Shown here: in pieces, positions 1-11,495 of the stretch
How positions within the stretch are numbered: the first letter of the stretch is position 1
How the letters are laid out: every line of letters begins with the position of its first letter
Source of the DNA: an uncultured Deinococcales bacterium
GTDB lineage: Bacteria; Deinococcota; Deinococci; Deinococcales; JAAFIG01
NCBI GenBank assembly: GCA_964244895.1
Contig: CAXTKV010000170.1
Location: 1 to 11,763 of the forward strand
Direction of reading: 5' to 3'
DNA: 11,763 bases
Program-made: the position numbers and the translations under genes
Notes under the pieces: generated by a model
Told to the model about the DNA's origin: nothing
The model's input: the letters and a program-made list of their open reading frames with translations, nothing else
Databases searched by the model: none

Positions 1-788
1 CGCGTGTGAGACGCCCAGGCGGCGGGCGTGGCGTCCGCCAGGTAAGAGGTCGTGGCCAGCCCGATGCTCATGCCGCGCGTGCGTTTGAGGATCTCGGTGA
101 TCTGCTCCTGGCGCGGGTCGTCCAGGCTGCTGGCGGTGTTGTCCGGGTAGACCCCTAAGCCGTTGTTGGCGCTCTTGTGGCCGGTGGCGTAGGCGCTGGC
201 GCTGTTGGCGGAATCCGTCACCAGCCCGATCAACCCGGACGTGGCGATGCTGGCGACGTTATCGGTTTTTTCCATCTCGAGCATGCCGTTGGGCTTGCCG
301 TTGGTGATGCCCGTCTTGATGATGCGCGCCGCCGTGACGGTGTTCCAGCCCATGCCGTCACCGATGAACAGGATCACGTTTTTGGCTTTCTTGGTCAAAC
401 CCATGCCGCCGCGCACGATGTTGTACGTGGCCTTGTTGGTGAACGCGCCCGCGTCGTCGCTGCCCGTCACGGCGACCTCCAGGCTGCCCGTCGTGCGCAG
501 GGTCACGTCGCGAACCATGTAGTTCTCGGTGGTGGCGGCCTTGTCGCCCTCGCCCGCGCTTTTCACGAGCGGCTTGCCGAAGTAGCTTTCGGCGCTGCGA
601 CCGCCGACGGTGATCTCGAGGTTCCTGGTCGGGCTTTTCAGGTCGCTGATCTCGACGCGGAAATCGAACTTGGCTCCCGCCAGAAATTTGGCGTTGCTGA
701 CGGGCAAAATGGCGATCTTGGCTGCTTCAGCGCCGCTCACAACGGCGGCGATAGCGGCGGCAGCGATGGTCAATGCGCGTGATTTCAT
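1..788 (-). CDS. phoA: Secreted alkaline phosphatase (PhoA family), 5' part; continues beyond the left edge
   Basis: Manual translation from ATG at 788: MKSRALTIAAAAIAAVVSGAEA (signal peptide)...KAKNVILFIGDGMG...VTDSANSASAYATGHK (catalytic Ser in DSA)...LADATPAAWASHTR. RBS GGAGG lies 7 nt upstream. No stop codon in the window. Confidence 0.93.
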   Translation of the reverse strand, partial: MKSRALTIAAAAIAAVVSGAEAAKIAILPVSNAKFLAGAKFDFRVEISDLKSPTRNLEITVGGRSAESYFGKPLVKSAGEGDKAATTENYMVRDVTLRTTGSLEVAVTGSDDAGAFTNKATYNIVRGGMGLTKKAKNVILFIGDGMGWNTVTAARIIKTGITNGKPNGMLEMEKTDNVASIATSGLIGLVTDSANSASAYATGHKSANNGLGVYPDNTASSLDDPRQEQITEILKRTRGMSIGLATTSYLADATPAAWASHT

Positions 789-807
789 GTTTTGGCCTCC
801 GCGAAGG

Positions 808-839
808 AAGCTAAGAGTGGCGCGTCAGGTTTTTGTCAA
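808..839 (-). promoter_or_regulatory. Putative phoA promoter: 11-bp-period direct repeat (Pho-box-like) followed by a -10 element
   Basis: Minus strand reads TTGAC-AAAAAC-CTGAC-N10-TAGCTT ahead of the phoA RBS. The geometry matches OmpR/PhoB-family activated promoters. Confidence 0.5.
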
Positions 840-877
840 CTCGCGTTCTGGACTGTATTGATTCGCGTGCTGAAGCC

Positions 878-925
878 AAGACCGTCCAGCACGCGAATCT
901 AAAAATGCGTGCTGGACGGTGTTTC
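878..925. repeat. REP-like palindromic element, copy 1
   Basis: Perfect 14-bp inverted repeat ACCGTCCAGCACGC (881-894) / GCGTGCTGGACGGT (907-920) with a 12-nt loop. Degenerate right-arm fragments also occur at 841-859 and 860-872. Confidence 0.9.
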
Positions 926-1004
926 TGTTCACGGTGGCGCGTGTTGCGGGCGGTCGGTCATTGCTGTAGCGTCACCGGAAGTCTCGAGCTTGAGGACTTT
1001 GCTC

Positions 1005-1036
1005 TTGACGAAACCCTGAATTTCGCGCGGAAGACT
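1005..1036 (+). promoter_or_regulatory. Putative promoter of the small ORF (direct repeat plus -10-like hexamer, leaderless)
   Basis: TTGAC-GAAACC-CTGAA-N10-AAGACT-N6-ATG(1043). The spacing is identical to the phoA site. Confidence 0.4.
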
Positions 1037-1042
1037 CTGCGC

Positions 1043-1252
1043 ATGTCGAAACGACGCGAGACGTACATGAAAGAGGCCGCCAACCGTTTCCTCGAGAATT
1101 CCCGTTTCAGCACGCCCGCCGAAGCGGTCGAGGCGGGTGTCCGCACCATCAGCGAGTGGTGCGATTACCTGAACATCGCCCGCGCTCGCTACGGGTTGCA
1201 GCACGAACCCCTCGAGACGAACATCGCCTGGAACGAACCTCAGGCCGCCTGA
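1043..1252 (+). CDS. Hypothetical small protein (~69 aa, MSKRRETYMKEAANRFLENS...EPQAA)
   Basis: 3' part of ORF 833..1252, with GC-rich third codon positions. The upstream extension crosses a REP copy and is probably non-coding. A -10-like hexamer sits 6 nt before ATG 1043. Start is uncertain. Confidence 0.65.
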   Translation: MSKRRETYMKEAANRFLENSRFSTPAEAVEAGVRTISEWCDYLNIARARYGLQHEPLETNIAWNEPQAA

Positions 1253-1296
1253 GCGGATGGATCAGAAACAGCTCGAATCGAGCTATTTTGAGTAAC

Positions 1297-1361
1297 CGAG
1301 AAGACCGTCCAGCACGAGATATATCTGACTCGATGCTCAAGATTCGCGTCCTGGACGGTTT
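1297..1361. repeat. REP-like palindromic element, copy 2
   Basis: GAGAAGACCGTCCAGCACG...ATTCGCGTCCTGGACGGT, longer loop and one mismatch; lies between convergent genes. Confidence 0.85.
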
Positions 1362-1465
1362 TGGCTGATCCTGAAAAGAGTTCGGCGGGGTCAATCTCTT
1401 CACGCTCGCGCCTGTCCGAAGCCTCGGTCTCGAGTTTCGCGGAATGTGTAGGTGTTCCTCGAGCC

Positions 1466-3184
1466 TCAGTTCTTCAACTCGCGCGCGTAAATGTTGTGAT
1501 CCGCCGCGTTGACGAAAAGGGCGCGTCGACCGTCGGGTGAAAGTTGCCACTGGTCGTTCTCTATTTTCGCGTTCAGCGCGGCCAATGTTCTGGACGTGCC
1601 GGTGCGCGCATCGAATTCCATCAACTCGTGGCTCGGTGAGCGCAAGCCGAGCGGTACGTAGACGATCCGGTTCGCGTCTCGCCAACGGAGCGATCCGAAC
1701 CACGACGCGCGGCGCGACTGACCGGTGTTCGCATCCATCACGAAGGCGCCGTTGCGCGCGGCTGAATCGAAGGCGATCGTGTACGCGATCCAGCGCCCGC
1801 CGGGACTGAGGCTGAGGCTGCGAAAGTTGAGGGCTTTGACCAGCACGCGCGATTGGCCGCTTTGCACGTCCAGTACGCGCAAGCTGCGGTCGCGCTCGGT
1901 GGGGTCAGATTTCCCGGTGATCACCAACCGGTTCTCGTCCAGCCAGCCGACCACGCCGCCGCCGTACAGCCTGAGCGCGCGCTTCGGGCTGCTCGAGGTG
2001 AGCCTTGACGGCGCGCTGGTCAGGTTGGCGGTAAAAATATCCGTGGTCAGGCGGTCAAAATTGCCATTCAAAGCGGATACGCTCCACGCGATCCTGGCTT
2101 CGGATGGCGAGTACGACAGGTTGCCATCATTTGTCGGCAAGCTCACTCGGCGACCATCCGAGACGCGTTCCAGGATGCTGCGCGATCCCGGCAAGAGCGC
2201 GTAGCGTTCGCTCGGCGAGATGAACGCCACGCTCGAGAAGGCGGTTTTGATCGCGCCCGGTTCGTGCGGGTTGACGCCGTAGATGGCGGCGTTTCCGGGC
2301 TTGTCCACAGCTTTATCCACAAATAGAACGCGCGCGGAATCCGCGCTCCACGACGGGTTGGCGCAGCACCCGCCGGTCGTCAGTCGGATCTGTCCCAGGC
2401 TCGCGTCATCGTAGGAAGGCGGGACTGAAGGGAAAGCCTCGATTCTGCTCGGCCAGTTCTGGGCGGGGCTGCCGGGCGCGGGTGGCCACGGGCGCGCGAA
2501 TTCGTTCAGCAATCGTTGGCCGCGACGCGCCTGCGGTTGATCGTCCAGGCGCTGCCAGCGCCTCGGGTCGTTCAGATCCCGCTGGAAACCCCGCCCGAAG
2601 CTTCCGGCGAGTGCGAGCGTGCTCCAGTCGGCGTCGATGTACAAGACCGGGTTGAAGAAGCGCTGGTGCGAGGCGTCGCGCACCTCGAGGTGCAGGTGCG
2701 GCGCGCTGATGCAGGTGAACTGCGAATCGCCGGAAAGCCCAATCGGGTCGCCTCGTTTAACGCGCTGCCCGACGCGCACACCGGAACGTTTTTGCAGGTG
2801 CCCGTACAGGCTGGCCAGGTTGCCCGCGTGCAAAATCACCAGGTTGTGCGGCGGCGATCCGTGCGGGCCGTCGACTTCCGTGACGGTTCCGTCCCCGATG
2901 GCGCGCACGGTCGTACCGCACGGCGCGCTGAAATCCAGCCCGAAATGGATGCCCTGCCCGGCGCGGTAATCCGAATTCCTGCGCCGGTAGCCGCCCGTGG
3001 TGTTGCCGTAGGCCTGGGTGAACATCCACGAGTTCGGCCCCGGATCGCCCGCGAACGGCAACCCGAACTGGCGCGAGGGCGGCGCGATCCGGGCATCCGG
3101 CAGCGCTGGCGCGTAATGCGCCAGTCCGACCGCGCCAGCGCAGAGCGTCAGGACGAGCGTCAGGGCTTTCGGGGGTTTGGACAC
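1466..3184 (-). CDS. Exported M23-family metallopeptidase with C-terminal TolB/PD40-like beta-propeller
   Basis: Signal peptide; HxxxD (HFGLD), YGHL, VKRGDPIGLSGDS and HxH (PHLHLE) M23 motifs. The C-terminal half has repeated WSADS/ISPSE/YSPSE/LSPGG/LSPDG propeller-type turns. CATGAT lies 6 nt before the GTG start. Confidence 0.88.
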   Translation of the reverse strand: MSKPPKALTLVLTLCAGAVGLAHYAPALPDARIAPPSRQFGLPFAGDPGPNSWMFTQAYGNTTGGYRRRNSDYRAGQGIHFGLDFSAPCGTTVRAIGDGTVTEVDGPHGSPPHNLVILHAGNLASLYGHLQKRSGVRVGQRVKRGDPIGLSGDSQFTCISAPHLHLEVRDASHQRFFNPVLYIDADWSTLALAGSFGRGFQRDLNDPRRWQRLDDQPQARRGQRLLNEFARPWPPAPGSPAQNWPSRIEAFPSVPPSYDDASLGQIRLTTGGCCANPSWSADSARVLFVDKAVDKPGNAAIYGVNPHEPGAIKTAFSSVAFISPSERYALLPGSRSILERVSDGRRVSLPTNDGNLSYSPSEARIAWSVSALNGNFDRLTTDIFTANLTSAPSRLTSSSPKRALRLYGGGVVGWLDENRLVITGKSDPTERDRSLRVLDVQSGQSRVLVKALNFRSLSLSPGGRWIAYTIAFDSAARNGAFVMDANTGQSRRASWFGSLRWRDANRIVYVPLGLRSPSHELMEFDARTGTSRTLAALNAKIENDQWQLSPDGRRALFVNAADHNIYARELKN

Positions 3185-3249
3185 GGCTCGATCATGCGCT
3201 CAACGTCCGGTCTCTGGCGATGTGTCCGGTGACAATCGCTCGGGATGAT

Positions 3250-3318
3250 CTCGAGGATACTGTCCCGGACGGCATTTCTTGGGATACGATTTTTGCGTGT
3301 GCGACGGTGTTCTCTGAG
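3250..3318. repeat. REP-like palindromic element, copy 3 (degenerate)
   Basis: CTCGAGGATACTGTCCCGGACG...GCGTGTGCGACGGTGTTCTCTGAG. The outer arms match the family and pair with G-T wobbles. Confidence 0.65.
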
Positions 3319-3461
3319 AGCTTACCGACGAGGGTGAAAGCTCAACCTGAACCTCGAGCGCTCGCGATTTGAGCTCGGCTCGAGCGTGCTCTAACACCCT
3401 TACCCTGGCGCATCGGCATCTCGGAGAACGCCCTGAGGGTCGCGCGTCAGGGGATTGGATC

Positions 3462-4520
3462 TCAGCGAAAGTCGGAGAACCGATCCCGGTGAACCACGTA
3501 CACCACCCCGAGGGCCGCTGCCACCGCCAGCAGGCTCGAGACGCCGTAACTGACCAGCGGCAGGGTCAATCCGGTCACGGGCGCGAGCCCGATGGCCGCA
3601 CCCAGATTCTCGAGCACCTGAAAACCCAGCATCGCCATCACGCCACCGATCACCAGCCGATCCGTATCCGAAGGGCATTCGCCGCCCATGCCGGTCATTC
3701 GCCAGAACAGCAGGCCGTACATCACGATCAAAAAGGCCGCGCCCAGGAAGCCCTGTTCTTCCGCCCAGGGCGCGAAAATAAAATCCGTGTGGTCTTCGGG
3801 CACGAAATTGCCCTGCGATTGCGTGCCTTGCCGGTAGCCCTTGCCGGTCAGCCCACCCGAACCGATGGCGATGCGCGACTGGATCAACTGGTAGCCCTGG
3901 CCTCTGGCGTCCCGGTCGGGGTTGACGAAGATCGTCAGGCGGTTCTGCTGGTACGGTTTCAGGTGCGGCCAGACCAGGGTTGGGCTGGCCACCGCCACCA
4001 CCGCCAGCCCGATCAGCAGGTGACGCCACGGCACGCCGCGCGCCACGATCATGCCGACGATGATGGCCGAAAGCACCAGCGCGCCGCCCAGATCGCCCGT
4101 GCCGACCATCACCAGTCCCAGCATCGGCAAGGACACCGCCGCGATGGGCAGGTAATCGCGTGGGCTCCGGATCGGTCGGGTCATGACGCGCGCCAGCATC
4201 AAAATCAGCGCGATCTTGCCGAACTCGAGCGGTTGGAATTGAAAGAAACCGTGCCCCAGCCAGTTGCGGTTGCCGTTGACTTCCGTGCCGAAGAACATCG
4301 TCATCAACAGCAGAATCAGCGATAGCCCGTACAACGGGACGGCCAGCGCGTACAACCTCGAGCGTCCCAGCCACCACAGCGCGGCGATCGGCACGAGCGC
4401 CAGTCCAGCGCCCAACAATTGCTTCTGGAAGACATCGTGCTGGGCGACGCTCGAGACGGTCAGCAGCCCGATCCCGAGGATCACCGCGATGATGAATGGC
4501 AACCCGATTTCGCGCGACAC
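3462..4520 (-). CDS. rodA: SEDS-family peptidoglycan glycosyltransferase (RodA/FtsW), probably RodA
   Basis: About 10 hydrophobic segments; FQFQPLEFGK, LKPYQQNRL, GYQLIQSRIAIGSGGLTGKG, VPEDHTDFIF and PVTGLTLPLVSYG motifs. Confidence 0.9.
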   Translation of the reverse strand: MSREIGLPFIIAVILGIGLLTVSSVAQHDVFQKQLLGAGLALVPIAALWWLGRSRLYALAVPLYGLSLILLLMTMFFGTEVNGNRNWLGHGFFQFQPLEFGKIALILMLARVMTRPIRSPRDYLPIAAVSLPMLGLVMVGTGDLGGALVLSAIIVGMIVARGVPWRHLLIGLAVVAVASPTLVWPHLKPYQQNRLTIFVNPDRDARGQGYQLIQSRIAIGSGGLTGKGYRQGTQSQGNFVPEDHTDFIFAPWAEEQGFLGAAFLIVMYGLLFWRMTGMGGECPSDTDRLVIGGVMAMLGFQVLENLGAAIGLAPVTGLTLPLVSYGVSSLLAVAAALGVVYVVHRDRFSDFR

Positions 4521-4606
4521 GTTGACCTCGACTGGATTCTCTCCTTCCGGCGCGGCTTGAGGGTGAGAAGGCTCTCAATCTGCGCCCGCGTCGGGCAGGG
4601 TTGTAT

Positions 4607-4660
4607 CTCGAAGAACACCGTCCAGCACGCAATTCCAGAAACGTGTGCTGGACGGTGTTC
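4607..4660. repeat. REP-like palindromic element, copy 4
   Basis: GAACACCGTCCAGCAC (4613-4628) / GTGCTGGACGGTGTTC (4645-4660), a perfect 16-bp inverted repeat just after the dehydrogenase stop codon. Confidence 0.92.
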
Positions 4661-4664
4661 CGCT

Positions 4665-5552
4665 TCAATCCTTCTTCTCGAGCCCCAATTCCTGGCCCGC
4701 CCAGCGCTCCAAGAGTTGCGCGGCGGCCACGTGATCCACGTCCGGCCCGAGTTCGCGCAACGCGATCTCCAGCAGATTTTCCGTCAAGGAGGTCAACGGC
4801 GACGGCACGCGGCTCTCGCGCAGCGCCTGGGACGCGATCCGCACATCCTTGGCCATCAAACCCAGCGCGAAGGTCGCCGGAAACGCCCGACCCACGACGC
4901 GCTCCGGGAACAGGTTCATCGAAACGTTGGAACGCCCGCTCGAGGCGTTGATCACTTCCAGGGCGGTGGCGGTGCTGACCCCGGCCTTCTCGAGGCCCAA
5001 CAGCACCTCCGATAAGCCCAGGATGTTGATCGCCAACATCGCCTGGTTGGCGGCCTTGACCGCCATGCCCGCCCCAGATGGCCCGACGTGAACGACTTTC
5101 GCGGCGAAGGCGTCGATCGCGGGTCGGGCCGTCTCGAGCGCGGCGACCTCACCGCCGATCATGACGGTCAGTTTGCCGCCCACCGCGCCGCCCACACCGC
5201 CGGACACGGGCGCATCCAGAAACTGCACGCCTCTGGTTTCCAGCAACGCCTGAAGTGCTCGGGCGGTGGCGGGATCACCGGAGGTGCAATCCACCCAGAC
5301 CGCGCCCGGTTTGATGACTGTTAATGCTTCGTGCACCAGCGGCACGACTTCCTTCGAGGTCGGCACGCAACTGAAAATCACGTCCGCGCCCATCGCTTCA
5401 GTGACACTCGACACGGCTTTCGATCCGAACTCAAGCGCGTGCGTTTCGGCTTTGGCCGCCGTGCGGTTCCAGACGAGCGTCTCGAAACGTTTGGCCAGGT
5501 GACCCGCCATCGGGTAGCCCATCAGTCCCAATCCTAAAAAAGAGGCGCGCAT
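4665..5552 (-). CDS. NAD(P)-dependent beta-hydroxyacid dehydrogenase (3-hydroxyisobutyrate dehydrogenase/tartronate semialdehyde reductase family)
   Basis: FLGLGLMGYPMA Rossmann motif, FLDAPVSGG substrate motif, catalytic Lys in GMAVKAANQ, F.L.LMAKD. GAGAAT lies 6 nt before the ATG. Confidence 0.92.
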   Translation of the reverse strand: MRASFLGLGLMGYPMAGHLAKRFETLVWNRTAAKAETHALEFGSKAVSSVTEAMGADVIFSCVPTSKEVVPLVHEALTVIKPGAVWVDCTSGDPATARALQALLETRGVQFLDAPVSGGVGGAVGGKLTVMIGGEVAALETARPAIDAFAAKVVHVGPSGAGMAVKAANQAMLAINILGLSEVLLGLEKAGVSTATALEVINASSGRSNVSMNLFPERVVGRAFPATFALGLMAKDVRIASQALRESRVPSPLTSLTENLLEIALRELGPDVDHVAAAQLLERWAGQELGLEKKD

Positions 5553-5565
5553 GCCGCGATTCTCG

Positions 5566-5625
5566 CACGAGACGGCACCGTCTGGGACGTGAGTTGAAAT
5601 CTGCGTCCCAGACGGTGTTCTCGTG
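5566..5625. repeat. REP-like palindromic element, copy 5 (compensatory variant)
   Basis: CACCGTCTGGGACG (5576-5589) / CGTCCCAGACGGTG (5604-5617), perfect 14 bp, plus an outer CACGAGA/TCTCGTG pair. Confidence 0.88.
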
Positions 5626-5805
5626 GGTTATTCCTCGAGAACACCCGAATTTCACGAACGCGATCTCGAGCAGAACCCGATCAGACCGCTCAGGTTTGCA
5701 ATTCGCGTTTCAGCCCGAGATACCCAAAACCCGTCCAATCCGACTGGCGCGCGAGACTGACCGCAATAAAAGTGTCACTTCGCTGGGGAAAGTGTACTTC
5801 TCGCC

Positions 5806-5832
5806 TTGTCAATACGTTTTCAGGCGTATACT
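5806..5832 (+). promoter_or_regulatory. Putative sigma70 promoter TTGTCA-N15-TATACT
   Basis: Near-consensus hexamers with a short spacer, directly upstream of the small ORF. Confidence 0.45.
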
Positions 5833-5845
5833 CCGGGTGTTGCTT

Positions 5846-6142
5846 ATGCGACCCGCCTACTCCTACCCGCTCGGCCCACTGGCCGCCCCATCCGACACCG
5901 AAAGCGCTGCGACCCCATCCGTCCTGCGCGGCACGGCCCGAGAAGCCTTCCTGACGCGGCTTCACACCCGGCTCGTCAACCCGGAAGACGAAGTGCTTCT
6001 GGAGGATGAACTCGGACAGCCGTGGGTGGATCGTCCGATTCTGGATCTCTCGGACGAGCGCGAACTCGTGCAAGTCAGTTGGCGCGAGGTCTGCCTGAAC
6101 TGGCCGGACGCGATGTGCAACGACGACGCGGACAAAAAGTAA
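5846..6142 (+). CDS. Hypothetical acidic protein (~98 aa)
   Basis: 3' part of ORF 5594..6142 with GC-rich third positions, preceded by TATACT and followed by a terminator. In-frame GTG 5837 and TTG 5840 are alternative starts. Confidence 0.7.
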   Translation: MRPAYSYPLGPLAAPSDTESAATPSVLRGTAREAFLTRLHTRLVNPEDEVLLEDELGQPWVDRPILDLSDERELVQVSWREVCLNWPDAMCNDDADKK

Positions 6143-6162
6143 GCGCCAAAAACAACCCCACC

Positions 6163-6191
6163 AAAGCCCGAGCCTCGCGCTCGGGCTTTTT
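6163..6191. terminator. Intrinsic terminator, probably bidirectional
   Basis: AAAGCCCGAGC-CTCGC-GCTCGGGCTTTTT between convergent stop codons at 6142 and 6208. Confidence 0.85.
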
Positions 6192-6207
6192 CGCGCCTGA
6201 AAATGCC

Positions 6208-6834
6208 TCAGGTCGTCCAGCGCGAGAGAACCCGAGGTCCGAAGGTGTAATTCAACTGCACCAGCACGATAAAACCGATGCTCCAGTACGTGTTGAAAAC
6301 GCACAGGGCCGCACCGAGCGCATAGAGCGTCTGGGCGACCACGATCCGGCGCTTGATGACCACGGAAAGCTCAGCTGGCGTCTCCGGTCTAACCAGCCCC
6401 GCCCGGATCGCGTAAGTCCAACTGCCGTACAGCACGACCCCCAACAGCAGCACGTTCAGCCAGTAGATGATCAGCGCCGTGCGGAAGGTGATGAATTCTG
6501 CCAGCAAGTTCGTCGAAAACGGCATCAGCGCCACCGCCGCCAGGAACGCCAGGTGAATCCAGGAAAGCTGACGGTCCGCGCGGCTGAACTGGCTGAGTTG
6601 CGCCTGCTGCCCGACCCAGAAAATCCCGAGCGTCAAGAACGACAACAGGTACGTTGCCACGCGCGGCGAGAGCCCCGCCAGCGCGCGCCAGAGATCCTGC
6701 TCGGTCTGAACGCTTTCCGGCGATGGAACGCGAATCTCGAGCACGATCAAGGTCATGGCGATGGCGAACAGGCCGTCGCTCAGGGCAGCGATGCGCTCCA
6801 GGCTGGTCGCGGCGAACCGGTTGTATAAGCTCAT
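6208..6834 (-). CDS. TMEM175-family (DUF1211) potassium channel-like membrane protein, 208 aa
   Basis: RIAALSDGLFAIAMTLIVLEI (RxxxFSD-like TM1), YLLSFLTLGIFW and ALMPFST motifs; about 6 TM segments. Start placed at ATG 6834, with CATAGT 7 nt upstream, because the longer ORF runs through a REP copy. Confidence 0.9.
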   Translation of the reverse strand: MSLYNRFAATSLERIAALSDGLFAIAMTLIVLEIRVPSPESVQTEQDLWRALAGLSPRVATYLLSFLTLGIFWVGQQAQLSQFSRADRQLSWIHLAFLAAVALMPFSTNLLAEFITFRTALIIYWLNVLLLGVVLYGSWTYAIRAGLVRPETPAELSVVIKRRIVVAQTLYALGAALCVFNTYWSIGFIVLVQLNYTFGPRVLSRWTT

Positions 6835-6889
6835 CGGTTTCACTATGGCCTTCGGCGAAAACACAATCAAGGGTGCGCCCGGTGTTCCC

Positions 6890-6942
6890 CTCGAGAAGAC
6901 CGTCCTGCACGCATATCTCGATTCGCGTCCCGGACGGTGTTC
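6890..6942. repeat. REP-like palindromic element, copy 6
   Basis: CTCGAGAAGACCGTCCTGCACGC-N12-GCGTCCCGGACGGTGTTC between divergent genes. Confidence 0.85.
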
Positions 6943-7049
6943 CTGTGCTCGCCCAATTCTCGCCCGAGCCCCGCCCATCGCGCTAGAATGGCGTTCCACA
7001 GCCATGCTCGAGCCGAATCCCGGCCCGAGAACCCCAAAGAGGTGAGCGC

Positions 7050-8399
7050 ATGACGATCCCGACCAGCAAACAGGAACTTCACCAGCAACAGCACGCCAAA
7101 CACGTGCTCTCGTCGTGGGCGGTGCAGAGCACCATGGCGCAAGCCCCGGTCGCCGTGCGCGGCGAGGGGCGCTTCTTCTGGGACGAGGACGATAACAAGT
7201 ACCTCGACCTGGCCTCCGGGCTGGTCAGCACCAACCTCGGACACGGGCACAAGGCGGTCGTCAAGGCGATCCAGGATCAGGCCGCCAAACTCTGCTACGC
7301 CCCGACCTCGTACCTGAACGACAAACGCGCCGAACTGGGCGCGGCGCTCTCCGAACTCTCGCCGTGGGAAGAGGGCTGCCGCACGTTCTTCACCACCGGC
7401 GGCGCTGAAGCCAACGACGACGCCATCCGTCTGGCGCGCACCCTGACGGGCCGATTCAAGATCCTCGCGCCGTACCGCAGCTATCACGGCAGCACCGGAT
7501 TGAGCATCCAACTGACCGGCGAAGACCGCCGCTGGGGCAACGAACCCGCCATCTCGCCCGGCATCCTGCACTTCTGGGCTCCGTTCACGTACCGCAGCCC
7601 GTTCTTCACGCAAGACCCCGCCGAAGAAACCGCCAGGGCGCTCGAACACCTCGAGCGCACGCTCTTGCAAGAAAACCCCCAACGCGTCGCCGCGATCATC
7701 CTCGAGCCGATCGTCGGCACGAACGGCGTGATCGTCTACCCGGAAGGCTACCTGGCCGGATTGCGCCGCATCACCGAACAGCACGGCATCCTGTTGATCT
7801 TCGACGAGGTCATGACCGGTTTCGGGCGCACCGGATCGGCCTTCGCCAGCACGCGATTCAACGTCACACCCGACATCCTGACCTTCGCCAAAGGCGTCAC
7901 CAGCGCGTACTTGCCGCTCGGCGGCGTGATGGTGCGCGAAAGCCTGGCCAGGCACTTCGACACCAACGCCCTGCCGGTGGGTCACACCTACGCGGGCCAC
8001 CCGATGTCCTGCGCCGCCGGACTGGCGACCTTGCGCGCCTATCAGGAAGAAGGCATCTTTGACTACGCCAGAAACACCCTCGAGCCCTGGTTGCGCTCCG
8101 GCCTCAAGGAACTCGAATCCCGCCACGCCATCATCGGCGAGGCGCGCGGATTGGGCGCGTTCTGGGCGCTGGAATTCGTGAAAGACAAAGACACCCGCGA
8201 ACCCCTCGTGCCCTGGATGGGCGACGGCCCCGGCGTCATGAAACACTTCTACGCCGAACTCAAAAAACGCGGCGTCTACAGCTTCGGCAAGTTCAACGTC
8301 GCCATGGTCACACCACCCCTGACCACCACCCGCGAAGAACTCGACCTGGGTCTTGAGGCGCTCGACGCAGCCACCACCGCCCTGAACGCGATCATCTAA
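7050..8399 (+). CDS. Class III PLP-dependent (omega-amino acid/amine) aminotransferase
   Basis: YLDLASGL, GGAEAND, SYHG, ILEPIVG, LIFDEVMTGFGRTG, PDILTFAKG (PLP Lys) and GHTYAGHP motifs. RBS GAGGTG; TAGAAT at 6984-6989. Confidence 0.95.
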   Translation: MTIPTSKQELHQQQHAKHVLSSWAVQSTMAQAPVAVRGEGRFFWDEDDNKYLDLASGLVSTNLGHGHKAVVKAIQDQAAKLCYAPTSYLNDKRAELGAALSELSPWEEGCRTFFTTGGAEANDDAIRLARTLTGRFKILAPYRSYHGSTGLSIQLTGEDRRWGNEPAISPGILHFWAPFTYRSPFFTQDPAEETARALEHLERTLLQENPQRVAAIILEPIVGTNGVIVYPEGYLAGLRRITEQHGILLIFDEVMTGFGRTGSAFASTRFNVTPDILTFAKGVTSAYLPLGGVMVRESLARHFDTNALPVGHTYAGHPMSCAAGLATLRAYQEEGIFDYARNTLEPWLRSGLKELESRHAIIGEARGLGAFWALEFVKDKDTREPLVPWMGDGPGVMKHFYAELKKRGVYSFGKFNVAMVTPPLTTTREELDLGLEALDAATTALNAII

Positions 8400-8423
8400 A
8401 GCCTTCAACTCAGTCCAAACCTT

Positions 8424-8474
8424 CCGTCCCCGACGACCCTCTCAGCTCGAGAGAACACCGTCGGGGACGGTCTT
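8424..8474. repeat. REP-like palindromic element, copy 7 (rearranged); may act as terminator
   Basis: CCGTCCCCGACG (8424-8435) / CGTCGGGGACGG (8459-8470), followed by TCTTTT. Contains the family end CTCGAGAGAACACCGTC. Confidence 0.7.
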
Positions 8475-8648
8475 TTGCTGACACACCACGAAGCCGCGCA
8501 GCGGTGACGGAATTGCACACGACCCACCCCACCCCGGACGCTAATGTGAAACGGAAAACGCGAAAGAAATCCATCCAGGAGGTAAAACGCGAACGCACGC
8601 CAGAAACTACCAAAACCCCGCTCCCAGACGGCGAAACACGCCAAGCCT

Positions 8649-8680
8649 GTAAGAGAACCGTAAGTGCCCCGCGTTAAACT
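8649..8680 (+). promoter_or_regulatory. Putative major pilin promoter: direct repeat plus -10
   Basis: GTAAG-AGAACC-GTAAG-N10-TAAACT, about 100 nt upstream of the pilin start. Confidence 0.45.
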
Positions 8681-8782
8681 CAATCTCAGACAGCAAGAGG
8701 AACGACCTCGAGCGTCCAGAACTGCACACGGTTGACCGACCAATATAAATAAAACATTCGGTCAAACCACAAGGAGAAAGAC

Positions 8783-9154
8783 ATGAAGAACCGTAAGGCC
8801 CAAGGCTTCACCCTGATCGAGCTCCTGATCGTCATCGCCATCATCGGTATCCTCGCCGCCGTGCTCATCCCGAACCTGTTGAGCGCCCGCACCACCGCCC
8901 AGAAGCGCGCCGAGCAGGCCTACACGCAGAACGTCTTCAAGGCCGCCAACGCCTACATCGCCGACAACATCGCCGCCACCGCCCTGCCCTCCACCTCGTG
9001 CGTCGGCAGCTACACCGTGGGCAGCTACGGCGCAGGCTCCGGCCCGGCGACGCTGAGCGCCTGCACGGTCGCCTTCGTTGCTGCCACCCAGACGGTCACG
9101 GTCACGGCCACCAGCACCATCTCCGGCGTCGGTACCTTCACGGTCGGCAACTAA
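8783..9154 (+). CDS. pilA: Type IV pilin, probable major pilin (PilA4-like)
   Basis: MKNRKAQG|FTLIELLIVIAIIGILAAVLIPNL class III signal with E5; two Cys; strong RBS AAGGAG; strongly C/G-ending codons; own terminator. Confidence 0.92.
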   Translation: MKNRKAQGFTLIELLIVIAIIGILAAVLIPNLLSARTTAQKRAEQAYTQNVFKAANAYIADNIAATALPSTSCVGSYTVGSYGAGSGPATLSACTVAFVAATQTVTVTATSTISGVGTFTVGN

Positions 9155-9178
9155 ACCCCGCATCCGAACCTGGAACAC

Positions 9179-9212
9179 AACCCCTCGACGGCGCAAGCCG
9201 CCGGGGGGTTTG
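9179..9212 (+). terminator. Intrinsic terminator after pilin 1
   Basis: AACCCCTCG-A-CGGC-GCAA-GCCG-C-CGGGGGGTT-TG: stem with GNRA tetraloop and a short U tail. Confidence 0.7.
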
Positions 9213-9282
9213 GTATGAGCATCAAGATAAGATCGCCCTGATGTACGCGGGCGTCGTGATCAGGATGCTCCCCGAGGCGCAT

Positions 9283-9687
9283 ATGTCCCAGAAACCGCTT
9301 CCTTCTCAGCGTCAAATACAGTTTCCTCAGTCAGACGGGTTCACCCTGATCGAGTTGTTGATTGTTATCGCTATTATCGGCATTCTGGCCGCTGTGCTGA
9401 TCCCCAACCTGATGAGCGCCCGTAAGGTCAGTCAGAATCGCGCGGCCCAGGCATATGGACAGAACGTGTATAAGGCAGCCAACGCCTATCTGTCGGAATT
9501 CCCCAGCGCGACCACGAGCGACATAGTCAACCCGGATTGCAAAGCCGGGTACGCGACCGGCAACTACAGCGTGGCAAATCCGGGGACGGGCGTGCAAAGC
9601 TGCCGCGTCGAACCGGATGCGAATGGCAACGGAGCGCGCGTCGTGGTCGTCAGTATCAACAGCACGACCTTTACCGTCGGTTTGTAA
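9283..9687 (+). CDS. Second type IV pilin paralog (134 aa)
   Basis: MSQKPLPSQRQIQFPQSDG|FTLIELLIVIAIIGILAAVLIPNL; GAGG upstream of ATG 9283; aligns with pilin 1 over the mature chain (AY.QNV.KAANAY, two Cys, TFTVG). Confidence 0.88.
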   Translation: MSQKPLPSQRQIQFPQSDGFTLIELLIVIAIIGILAAVLIPNLMSARKVSQNRAAQAYGQNVYKAANAYLSEFPSATTSDIVNPDCKAGYATGNYSVANPGTGVQSCRVEPDANGNGARVVVVSINSTTFTVGL

Positions 9688-9702
9688 GCAAAATAGTTGC
9701 TC

Positions 9703-9738
9703 TGAAGGGTGTCCTCGAGATCTCGAGGACACCCTTCA
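9703..9738. repeat. Perfect 36-bp palindrome with no loop
   Basis: TGAAGGGTGTCCTCGAGA|TCTCGAGGACACCCTTCA. Confidence 0.95.
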
Positions 9739-9834
9739 ATAATCCTTGGGTTTTTGCGAAAAGCCGTTCAGGCTCGAGCGTTGCACTCGAGATGACCAAA
9801 CATCTCCGATCGGGTTTCCGTTTTTGCTTCAGCA

Positions 9835-9880
9835 AAAACACCGTCGTGGACGCGCCGAAATATTCGTGTGCTGGACGGTA
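9835..9880. repeat. REP-like palindromic element, copy 8
   Basis: AACACCGTCGTGGACGCG-N10-CGTGTGCTGGACGGTA; imperfect stem. Confidence 0.8.
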
Positions 9881-9977
9881 TCGCGTACAAACTGCCAATC
9901 TCGTCCTACGTCCCACCGCTTCGATCTCGAGGTGCAAACGCACCGAGAAACCCGCCAGCGGCGTCTATAGTCCACCT

Positions 9978-11495
9978 GTGCGCGAACCCTTCCTGACGAC
10001 CCCGCGCGCATCGCATCCCGCGTCAAATCTGCGTACCGACATCGATGCTGGCGCAACGTTGCTGACTGTGTTCGTGGCGGTGTTCCCGCTCGTGTTCGTG
10101 CCGGGCGCACTCTTCTCGAACCCTCCGATCATTGATGACACGGTGCGGACGCAGGCGATGGAGCAATACTTTTTTCTGCCGAAGCTAATTGTGCTGTGCG
10201 TCTTCGGATTGCTGGCGTTACTTGAGACTCGCAAGCGAAGTTGGCGTTCCGTGTGGGTCGGCTTGCTGGTCGTACACTTGGCCCTGGTCGCCCTGAGCGC
10301 TTTGAACGCGAACGACACGATCACTTATGTCCTGTTGGGCGGTCAGCAGCGCCTGGATGGCGTGGTGTATCAGGTCGCGCTCGCGCTGATCGGCGTGTTC
10401 GCATTTCAAACGTTTGCCCAAGATCAGAGCGGCATCTCGAGGGTCATGACAGCGTTCGTCGCGGCGGGTGCAACCCAGGCCGTGCTGGTCGTGGTTCAGC
10501 GTCTGGGTTTCGATCCGGTCGCAACGTTCGTGCGCTGGAAGGCGTTCGATGCGCCGGGTGGCAGCATTGGGCATCCCGGCATGGTCGCGGGTTTGCTGCT
10601 GCCCGCCTTGATCCTGGCAACCTGGTCTTTTCTCGAGTCGCGCGAATCGCGTTCGAGGCTGTGGTGGGGTCTGGCAGCGGTCGCGTTGTCCATTGGCCTG
10701 AGCGTGGTCAGCAACAGAACGGCGCTGCTCGGGTTGGGTATTGGATTGGCCTTTGTCCTTTTGCGTCGGCGTTCGCTGGAGACGCTGGGTTTTTCAGCAT
10801 TTTTGATCGTCCTGGTGATTTTTGGGCGCAACGCGATCCCCAGCCCGAACGCACCGAACCGCGACCTGATCTCGACCCAGACGCTCGAGACGCGCCGCAT
10901 GATCTGGCCGCTGGCGCTTCAGGCATCTCGAGAAACGAGGGGTCAACCGTTGATTGGCGGAGGGCCGGACGCGTTGCGGTTGTGGACGTTGCGCTCCGCA
11001 CCCCTCGGGCAGTTTGTGTCGCTTCTCGGTCTCGAGCTGGGTTGGCCGTCCGATACGATCATCGAGCGCACAGATCTGATACGAGCGCCAGATGCGCCAA
11101 TTCGGGATTCGCTCTTGCGCGTGCAGTTCGCCCGCTTCGGTGACCAGCAAAACGTGACTCGAGATTTTCCCATCACCCTGGATCGGGCGCACGATCTGCT
11201 GCTGGATCGGCTGGTGGCCTACGGTGGTCTGAGCGCCCTGATCTGGTTGGTGTTGTACCTGTACCCGTTGCTCAAACCCACCTGGGACTTGGTTGTCCGA
11301 TCTCGAGCGAGCACGCATTCGTCTCGAGAAAACCATCCGGGAAACGGGGTCGCAGGGGGCTTGATCGGCGCGGTGCTGGCATTGAGCGTGTATTACCTGG
11401 CGTGGTTCCCGGTCATGCAGGTCGAACCGCTGCACCTGATCCTGCTCGCCGCTGCGTGGGTCGCCGTCTCGAGATTGAACGGGGCAAAAACGTGA
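9978..11495 (+). CDS. O-antigen ligase (Wzy_C) family membrane protein, candidate pilin O-oligosaccharyltransferase, ~505 aa
   Basis: Multi-TM; GSIGHPG, SNRTALLGL, TRRMIWPLAL..PLIGGGP and DRAHDLLLD..VAYGGL resemble Wzy_C motifs. Start placed at GTG 9978, 6 nt after TATAGT; the upstream part of ORF 9537 spans repeats. Confidence 0.78.
   Translation: MREPFLTTPRASHPASNLRTDIDAGATLLTVFVAVFPLVFVPGALFSNPPIIDDTVRTQAMEQYFFLPKLIVLCVFGLLALLETRKRSWRSVWVGLLVVHLALVALSALNANDTITYVLLGGQQRLDGVVYQVALALIGVFAFQTFAQDQSGISRVMTAFVAAGATQAVLVVVQRLGFDPVATFVRWKAFDAPGGSIGHPGMVAGLLLPALILATWSFLESRESRSRLWWGLAAVALSIGLSVVSNRTALLGLGIGLAFVLLRRRSLETLGFSAFLIVLVIFGRNAIPSPNAPNRDLISTQTLETRRMIWPLALQASRETRGQPLIGGGPDALRLWTLRSAPLGQFVSLLGLELGWPSDTIIERTDLIRAPDAPIRDSLLRVQFARFGDQQNVTRDFPITLDRAHDLLLDRLVAYGGLSALIWLVLYLYPLLKPTWDLVVRSRASTHSSRENHPGNGVAGGLIGAVLALSVYYLAWFPVMQVEPLHLILLAAAWVAVSRLNGAKT

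Follow-up and report, generated by a model that had tools for sequence, protein, structure and literature searches.

Highly iterated palindromes (HIPs) of cyanobacteria, HIP1 (GCGATCGC) and its alternates, are hyper-abundant words found in coding and non-coding DNA and in all reading frames (PMC4390886, PMC5861425, PMC13756078). HIP1 is still without an agreed cause after thirty years, and a methyltransferase is part of the current models. We describe here the excess of another palindrome, CTCGAG, in a stretch of 11,763 nucleotides from an uncultured bacterium of the Deinococcales (the window; CAXTKV010000170.1) and in the genome to which it belongs. The window is contig C170 of this genome (G000; 5.12 Mb, 328 contigs, 91% complete), and its three closest named RodA relatives, at 67-68% identity, come from uncultured 'Deinococcales bacterium' genomes. 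In the same order, Marinithermus hydrothermalis, Meiothermus ruber and M. chliarophilus carry N6-methyladenine (m6A) at this word, set by methyltransferases for which no restriction partner is listed (PMC4752239, tables S3 and S4). CTCGAG is also a subject in the honey bee (PMC3903499). No published report of a CTCGAG excess in Deinococcota was found in full text, subscription papers and the supplements of k-mer surveys lying outside this scope.

CTCGAG is in genome-wide, frame-independent excess

The window holds exactly 46 copies of CTCGAG, the first at 276 and the last at 11468-11473, or 3.9/kb at a GC content of 62.4%. A sequence-only reading had put the count at about 46 where about four were expected, and 200 dinucleotide-preserving shuffles of the window (mean 4.86, maximum 12) bear this out. 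The density is typical of the genome, where 21,883 copies (4.27/kb, about one per 230 bases) make CTCGAG the commonest hexamer, with nearly twice the count of the runner-up, and all 190 contigs of at least 10 kb carry it at 2.4-6.8/kb. Observed-to-expected ratios at Markov orders 0 to 4 are 12.8, 9.1, 9.8, 3.4 and 1.25, with rank first at orders 0-3, so that 3.4-fold is left after tetramer correction. The order-4 excess is small because 71% of CTCGA pentamers lie inside CTCGAG itself; once the sites are masked from the background the excess is about 20-fold. Other palindromes of six bases are mostly avoided (CGGCCG 30 copies, CCCGGG 60), and other NTCGAN words stand at 0.2-1.8x of expectation.

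The excess is a feature of the DNA rather than of a codon or a peptide. Among 4,661 genes called by a self-trained script, the strongest 4,003 contain 14,816 sites, of which 10,860 are read as Leu-Glu, 786 as xCT CGA Gxx and 3,170 as xxC TCG AGx; five synonymous shuffles give 3,019, 62 and 450, respectively, an excess of 3.6-, 12.6- and 7.1-fold by frame and 4.2-fold overall. Leu-Glu, which 73% of the coding sites spell, is the most over-represented dipeptide (18,321; 2.12x) while Glu-Leu stands at 0.99x, and CTC GAG encodes 59% of Leu-Glu against 11% expected. A force on the DNA is thus strong enough to double one dipeptide across the proteome. Every one of the six positions is favoured, those where the favoured change is towards A/T included, and most mirror positions are in agreement (log-odds of C1 versus T 1.92 and of G6 versus A 1.73; T2 versus C 1.39 and A5 versus G 1.26). 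Transition neighbours range from 1.2 to 1.9 and transversion neighbours mostly from 2.3 to 3.0, with exceptions at 1.1, 1.4 and 5.4, while some one-off neighbours are themselves mildly enriched (TTCGAG 1.86, CCCGAG 1.69, CTTGAG 1.32). Forward and reverse counts are identical, as for any palindrome, and there is no co-orientation with replication.

Genome-wide spacing is close to random (mean gap 231, coefficient of variation 0.96, variance/mean 0.96-1.27). The clusters of intergenic copies pointed out from the sequence are all present in the window; genome-wide there is no clustering, and these pairs reflect a higher intergenic density together with hairpins. Intergenic DNA is 7-14 times above expectation overall, at 5.2/kb away from an abundant hairpin repeat (7-11x expected) and 8.2/kb near it. 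That repeat, in which a short AT-rich spacer separates two inverted arms, occurs genome-wide; its 10-base core has 1,184 matches, just 67 of them within called genes, and CTCGAG is frequently found right at its ends (at two fixed offsets, for 117 and 98 of the 1,184). CTCGAG is itself no dispersed repeat of the REP/MITE type, with its 14,816 sites in genes and genome-wide no flanking consensus, the flanks carrying codon periodicity only. Along a closed genome of a relative, 20 windows range merely from 3.95 to 5.85/kb, a sampling too sparse to judge the periodicity of 10-90 kb that is a HIP trait (PMC5861425).

All three coding frames are occupied within the window, as the sequence-only reading had noticed for more than one; by our gene calls its 46 sites divide into 17 Leu-Glu, 8 xxC TCG AGx, 4 xCT CGA Gxx and 17 intergenic:

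3-788, minus strand, open reading frame (ORF; own gene call): 276 and 615, both Leu-Glu
983, 1429 and 1458, intergenic by own gene call
1043-1252, plus strand, weak call of a short ORF (own gene call): 1091 and 1211 inside it
1466-3184, minus strand, M23 peptidase gene: 1992 and 2232 (xxC TCG AGx), 2684 (Leu-Glu)
3250, 3353 and 3379, intergenic, adjoining a copy of the hairpin repeat
3462-4520, minus strand, FtsW/RodA gene: 3535, 4357 and 4450 (xxC TCG AGx), 3609 and 4224 (Leu-Glu)
Minus strand, NAD-dependent dehydrogenase gene: 4677, 4989 and 5133 (Leu-Glu), 4939 (xxC TCG AGx)
5634 and 5665, intergenic pair spanning 5634..5670
6208-7005, minus strand, TMEM175-family potassium channel gene: 6736 (Leu-Glu)
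6890 and 7007, intergenic
7050-8399, plus strand, class III aminotransferase gene: 7650, 7701 and 8079, all Leu-Glu
8446 and 8707, intergenic, upstream of the first pilin gene
8783-9154 and 9355-9687, plus strand, tandem type IV pilin-like genes, the first by an N_methyl match, the second by own gene call and a similar N-terminus
9703-9738, perfect 16-bp hairpin after the second pilin-like gene (-31 kcal/mol, z -7.2): 9714 and 9722 in its two arms
9773, 9786 and 9926, intergenic by own gene calls, the start of the downstream ORF being uncertain
Ending at 11495, plus strand, long membrane-protein ORF with nine sites (10436..11473) in all three frames: 10632, 10884 and 11031 (Leu-Glu), 10927, 11158, 11302 and 11323 (xCT CGA Gxx), 10436 and 11468 (xxC TCG AGx)
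878-923, 1301-1362, 3260-3311, 4614-4659, 5570-5619, 6896-6941, 8454-8490 and 9837-9882, copies of the hairpin repeat

The excess is shared by the whole family (f1, this genome and the 18 relatives G001-G018), whose 19 genomes all carry 4.3-6.8 CTCGAG/kb, this one being the lowest. Across an order sample of 201 genomes we compared CTCGAG with the same-composition word GTCGAG, computing the ratio for f1 and f2 and working it out by hand for the rest. It is 9-54 in f1, 3.4-19 in f5 outside genera g9 and g30, and below 0.5 in all 53 genomes of f3. The ratio reaches 26-340 in g9, where GTCGAG is almost absent and CTCGAG persists; seven 20-kb samples from this genus show avoidance of TCGA (0.57x), and 84% of the copies that are left belong to CTCGAG. 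Genus g9 is probably Thermus-like and f3 Deinococcus-like. The 28 g9 genomes (e.g. L421-L423, L439-L442) hold 5-70 GTCGAG per strand and 1,455-2,803 CTCGAG, and all 28 encode a TaqI-like methyltransferase that may, by analogy with what is reported for the Marinithermus enzyme, protect CTCGAG only. As a separate observation, GAGCTC, the mirror of CTCGAG, is almost absent in f1, with 0-25 copies in 16 of the 18 relatives, 114 and 161 in the remaining two and 568 in this genome; no shared methyltransferase accounting for this scarcity was found in the family.

Turnover, repair genes and a possible mismatch-stage bias

Rates of gain and loss come from relatives rather than from this genome, namely six genomes of genus g4 that differ by 12-14.5% and were compared over 78 coding blocks (92.6 kb of the reference). 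Here CTCGAG is lost about three times more slowly, and regained several-fold faster, than matched codons. Synonymous loss at sites versus controls is 29/758 versus 27/215 for the third position of Glu, 34/758 versus 116/1018 for Leu, 11/254 versus 20/181 for Ser and 8/145 versus 7/42 for Arg, and 4/254 versus 58/419 for the first C. Glu following CTC is written GAG in 96.5% of cells (177 columns) versus 27.7% elsewhere (287 columns), with at most one genome departing in 174 of the 177 columns, and the fitted gain is 0.75 (0.33-18) after CTC versus 0.073 (0.053-0.09) elsewhere. A leave-one-out count of gains has no power, one-off sites rarely persisting (2/83). The effect is confined to the six bases, for fourfold-site divergence is flat (0.29-0.34) at every distance from a site and the flanks are without local protection.

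Over longer times the number of sites is held while their positions turn over, because conserved Leu-Glu pairs share sites no more than controls do. Between this genome and G006 (163 orthologues, 67% protein identity) the odds of site sharing are 2.1, against a control-dicodon median of 1.9, so that conservation beyond codon controls is seen in g4 (five of six tests) and not at this distance. In the same comparison, site-encoded Leu-Glu lies in less conserved protein context (0.58 versus 0.63). One sequencing run contained a strain about 94% like the window, and none of 40 among its 727 differences fell in a site, where about one was expected.

The bias is also equal in every class of gene. 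The codon-corrected log-odds that Leu-Glu is written CTC GAG is 2.52 for all genes, 2.53 ± 0.09 for core genes, 2.61 ± 0.22 for defence genes, 2.37 ± 0.19 in three mobile regions and 2.36-2.86 across classes of GC content at third codon positions. Raw density in the mobile regions is 6.8-8.0/kb, and the stronger bias in mobile DNA that this suggested vanished after codon correction. An AT-rich restriction cassette has no CTCGAG in 2.35 kb, which argues that newly arrived DNA starts without it; fast acquisition, considered from low-GC methyltransferase genes rich in CTCGAG, was rejected because their hosts are themselves lower in GC. Phage integrase matches for f1 (three, at 25-33% identity, none in GenBank phages) are too distant to be informative. 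Separately, the plasmid-like contigs C165, C294, C312 and C248 carry error-prone polymerase (dnaE2-like) genes, that of C165, the only one of these contigs compared with named records, holding 37 CTCGAG in 3 kb.

Across the 201 genomes, those with a strong excess almost always have MutL as well as AddAB, though independent losses are few and there are exceptions. This genome encodes MutS, MutL, AddA and AddB, the last retaining its N-terminal domain. MutL was found in all genomes of f1, f3 and f5, in 19/53 of f2 and in 8/23 of f4; AddB in 15/18 of f1, 52/53 of f2, 0/53 of f3, 21/23 of f4 and 52/53 of f5; and AddA in 143/147 genomes outside f3 and 0/51 of g7. Of the 19 f2 genomes with MutL, 17 have a ratio of CTCGAG to GTCGAG of at least 2.2; the 34 in which no MutL was found all lie at 0.7-1.8. 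G025 of f4 has MutL and a ratio of 6.3, against 1.1-1.8 in 12 genomes of g8 with no MutL found. The f3 family, with its ratio below 0.5 (worked by hand), lacks a detected AddB throughout. On this handful of events MutL and AddAB both look close to necessary, and neither sufficient. The recombination or repair origin that had been proposed from the sequence gains a link by this co-occurrence, and nothing beyond it; in the loci compared, addAB had no conserved partner gene next to it.

The force acts equally on all classes of gene, spans six bases, is strand-symmetric, takes no account of position and goes with MutL; the simplest account of such a force is a bias at the stage of mismatches. Our preferred reading, held tentatively, is that CTCGAG is a HIP1-like word written by strand-biased mismatch resolution. 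The bias would act on mismatched DNA; a postulated sequence-specific reader would guide MutS/MutL repair, and MutS and MutL would carry out the bias by tending to keep the strand that reads CTCGAG. Some of the mismatches may come from recombination that AddAB starts between copies of the chromosome. Polyploidy is described for Thermus and Deinococcus (PMC6469415), and f1 may be polyploid by analogy. The word would then possibly be a by-product without site-by-site function. The fuller scheme, in which a sequence-specific MutS/MutL bias, independent of methylation and supplied with mismatches by AddAB recombination between copies of the chromosome, has put CTCGAG on every replicon and reshaped the proteome, seems to us rather unlikely as a whole. 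Repair of the Vsr type was ruled out, as changes towards A/T and transversions are favoured too.

Several results weigh against a mismatch-stage bias. Weak selection equally yields slow loss and fast gain, one of the six loss tests in g4 is without protection (11/145 versus 3/44), and the leave-one-out loss counts reuse columns, which overstates their p-values. One mirror pair disagrees (C3 versus G 2.80, G4 versus C 1.13). Seven g15 genomes with MutL and AddB have ratios of just 1.1-2.0, G180 and G192 are low with both (1.2 and 1.7), and G053 reaches 3.1 with no MutL found. In a quick tree of 29 AddA proteins, whose careful search is unfinished and in which f2 is not one clade, the f2 genomes without MutL fall in two or three places, and G135 (no MutL found) is sister to G192, which has MutL and an equally low ratio. 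The gene link has perhaps three or four independent losses behind it, which probably took other genes along. We found no strand-marking protein and know of no MutL system with such a sequence preference. In Thermus thermophilus, one study ruled out that gene conversion causes allele segregation (PMC6469415).

Selection, uptake, methylation and Chi as other causes

The copies could instead be binding sites of an abundant postulated protein, a chromosome organiser or repair loader, under weak selection at each site. Selection of a few units of Ne*s (effective population size times selection coefficient) per site would account for both the slow loss and the fast regain, the mildly enriched one-off neighbours are what graded binding would give, and PMC5861425 reads the same pattern of HIP1 conservation as selection. 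Leu-Glu is also slightly more often a site where few others lie within 300 bp (z -3.4). Near-random spacing and the weak, U-shaped local dependence of Leu-Glu being a site (0.68, 0.53, 0.66) speak against this, as does the turnover of positions; it does not by itself explain the MutL pattern, and no candidate protein is at hand. We consider it possible, if somewhat unlikely.

Biased uptake of DNA, also proposed from the sequence alone, would make CTCGAG an uptake signal whose copy number rises by recombination, as in Neisseria and Haemophilus. This genome and 17 of its 18 relatives encode ComEC, a pilin lies in the window, and DprA is recognised by motif only. The distorted proteome, the less conserved context and the enriched one-off neighbours are all like uptake sequences (PMC2817400), and HIP1 raises transformation in two cyanobacteria (PMC13756078). 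G120 (L426-L429), an f2 genome of 2.1 Mb and 96% completeness, has no excess and no ComEC found, but AddA, AddB and MutL were likewise not found in it. ComEC is present in 194/201 genomes, enriched or not, and the sites lack a consensus in their flanks. Transferred genes seldom contain uptake sequences (PMC2817400), whereas here the three mobile regions are biased like core genes, which weakens this explanation. The 20 CRISPR spacers hold 5 sites in 594 positions, at least the host density. In the array at G000:C36:30814-32156 (L402), by a type I-C-like cas operon, 5 of 18 spacers contain CTCGAG and so does the repeat itself. We keep uptake as a rival that is distinctly improbable.

In Elhai's ratchet the word is marked by a methyltransferase and new copies are fixed through methyl-directed repair; that enzyme would here have been missed or recently lost. 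Methylation of this very word to m6A, by enzymes without a listed restriction partner, has been measured in Marinithermus and two Meiothermus (PMC4752239), the MutL link fits, and this genome is incomplete and has the lowest density in its family. We searched with a TaqI-like protein of M. hydrothermalis (WP_013702854; 57% identical to M.TaqI-like g9 proteins and a strong match to solved M.TaqI) and with a protein of Meiothermus that clusters with one named 'modification methylase PaeR7I'; these are probably the CTCGAG enzymes of that study. No close homologue of either turned up in the 19 f1 genomes, where the best matches are partial and 26-39% identical, and an XhoI-family nuclease was found in 0/19 of them and in 6/201 across the order. 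The orphan XhoI/PaeR7I- or TaqI-like enzyme that had been anticipated was therefore not found in the searched family, and methylation-directed repair is not supported for f1. What stands of the HIP1 analogy first drawn from the window is that the word is genome-wide, frame-independent, family-wide and kept at the DNA level.

The wider survey of this 91% complete genome (four Pfam methyltransferase families and N6_Mtase, the two queries, and phmmer) gave no fitting cognate enzyme; there was no 5-methylcytosine (m5C) family match, and the phmmer sweep with collected methyltransferases added no DNA enzyme. The genome does encode a type I HsdM-like gene, a BREX PglX, a D12-class enzyme, a methyltransferase on a mobile element, and an AT-rich beta-class enzyme whose neighbour is probably a restriction gene. 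All of these are unlike the CTCGAG enzymes, although one of them might conceivably have this specificity. Matches to N6/N4 families occur in 17/19 and to Eco57I in 18/19 f1 genomes, and no shared orthologue appeared among the 30 and 30 loci compared, a subset of these matches. The m5C enzymes of five relatives are not orthologous to one another. Strong PaeR7I-like matches are sporadic (14/200 genomes), and density in g13 is alike with them (2.3/kb, 4 genomes) and without (2.1/kb, 13 genomes; by hand). The 348-kb plasmid pMESIL01 of Allomeiothermus silvanus carries 599 CTCGAG versus 99 GAGCTC (CTCGAG 3.1-3.5x in its first 50 kb), and the word is not among that strain's five listed methylation motifs, in data that read m5C poorly and leave one of six enzymes without a motif. 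Density here also lies above the model's ceiling of 1 per kb (PMC4390886). On balance the ratchet is an improbable source of the word in f1.

Two further observations concern methyltransferase loci. The gene beside the D12-class enzyme (G000:C6:30755-32520, L009) appears to resemble nucleases of the NotI/EagI family, and CGGCCG is the rarest hexamer of the genome. In G003:C40 (L197/L200) an m5C methyltransferase is split by a long insertion with ends that look intein-like by eye.

If CTCGAG were the Chi site of the Deinococcota AddAB, resection would stop there and repair between copies would favour the site-bearing allele. The AddA and AddB distributions, the f3 family without AddB and without excess, the N-terminal domain kept in AddB here, and the action on every replicon that would be expected all agree with this. 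Yet 34 f2 genomes lack the excess and 33 of those have AddAB, no AddB residue was seen by eye to track enrichment, and Phe68 of Bacillus, a Chi-binding residue (PMC4824097), aligns to Leu here. The abundance of known Chi sites is moreover largely explained by codon usage (bioRxiv 10.1101/2021.07.08.451572), and we regard this explanation as very doubtful. The low order-4 ratio, the share of Leu-Glu sites and the abutting hairpin repeat might point to an artefact, arising from codon usage, from Leu-Glu peptides, from a preference for TCGA or from a family of repeats. This deserves next to no credence given the three-frame excess after synonymous shuffling, Glu-Leu at expectation, the dicodon use, the excess in repeat-free intergenic DNA, the other NTCGAN words and the slow loss in g4.

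Comparison with known systems

CTCGAG shares with Neisseria and Pasteurellaceae uptake sequences the accumulation by point changes, the distortion of peptides, the less conserved positions and the near-matches (PMC2817400), and differs in being short, palindromic, free of a flanking consensus and not rarer in mobile DNA. With the Chi sites of RecBCD and AddAB (PMC4824097; bioRxiv 10.1101/2021.07.08.451572) it has in common that AddAB is present wherever it is enriched, and that it occurs on mobile DNA too; unlike them it is palindromic and without strand polarity, survives codon correction, and is not in excess in AddAB genomes without MutL. The orphan CTCGAG methyltransferases of Marinithermus and Meiothermus act on the same word in the same order and were not found in f1, while that of Nocardia goes with clusters at the origin, local near dnaA rather than a genome-wide excess (PMC4752239).

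In kind, CTCGAG resembles the HIPs. As for HIP1, abundance is kept beyond codon controls, one-off neighbours are enriched and function lacks an agreed account. CTCGAG differs in its phylum, in being a 6-mer with 67% GC, in having no cognate methyltransferase found, in its unconserved long-range positions, and in its density, 4,270 per Mb here and up to 6,800 in f1 against the 1,000-2,000 given for HIPs. The HIP class calls for at least 75% GC and for a cognate methyltransferase (PMC4390886, which itself lists TCGATCGA, at 50%, as an exception to the former); CTCGAG has a lower GC content and no such enzyme was found for it, and for this reason we do not file it in the cyanobacterial class. The bias proposed here amounts to the ratchet of PMC4390886 minus its methyltransferase, working above that model's ceiling. 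An unrelated phylum thus offers a denser word, no such enzyme found, and natural contrasts in the presence and absence of MutL and AddAB. Cultured relatives carry the excess, as the A. silvanus plasmid shows, so that repair bias, selection on binding sites and uptake can be separated by experiment. If the repair bias is right, highly iterated palindromes of other polyploid prokaryotes may be due to a drive of this sort, and CTCGAG would be a testable second case of an unexplained word of the HIP1 type.

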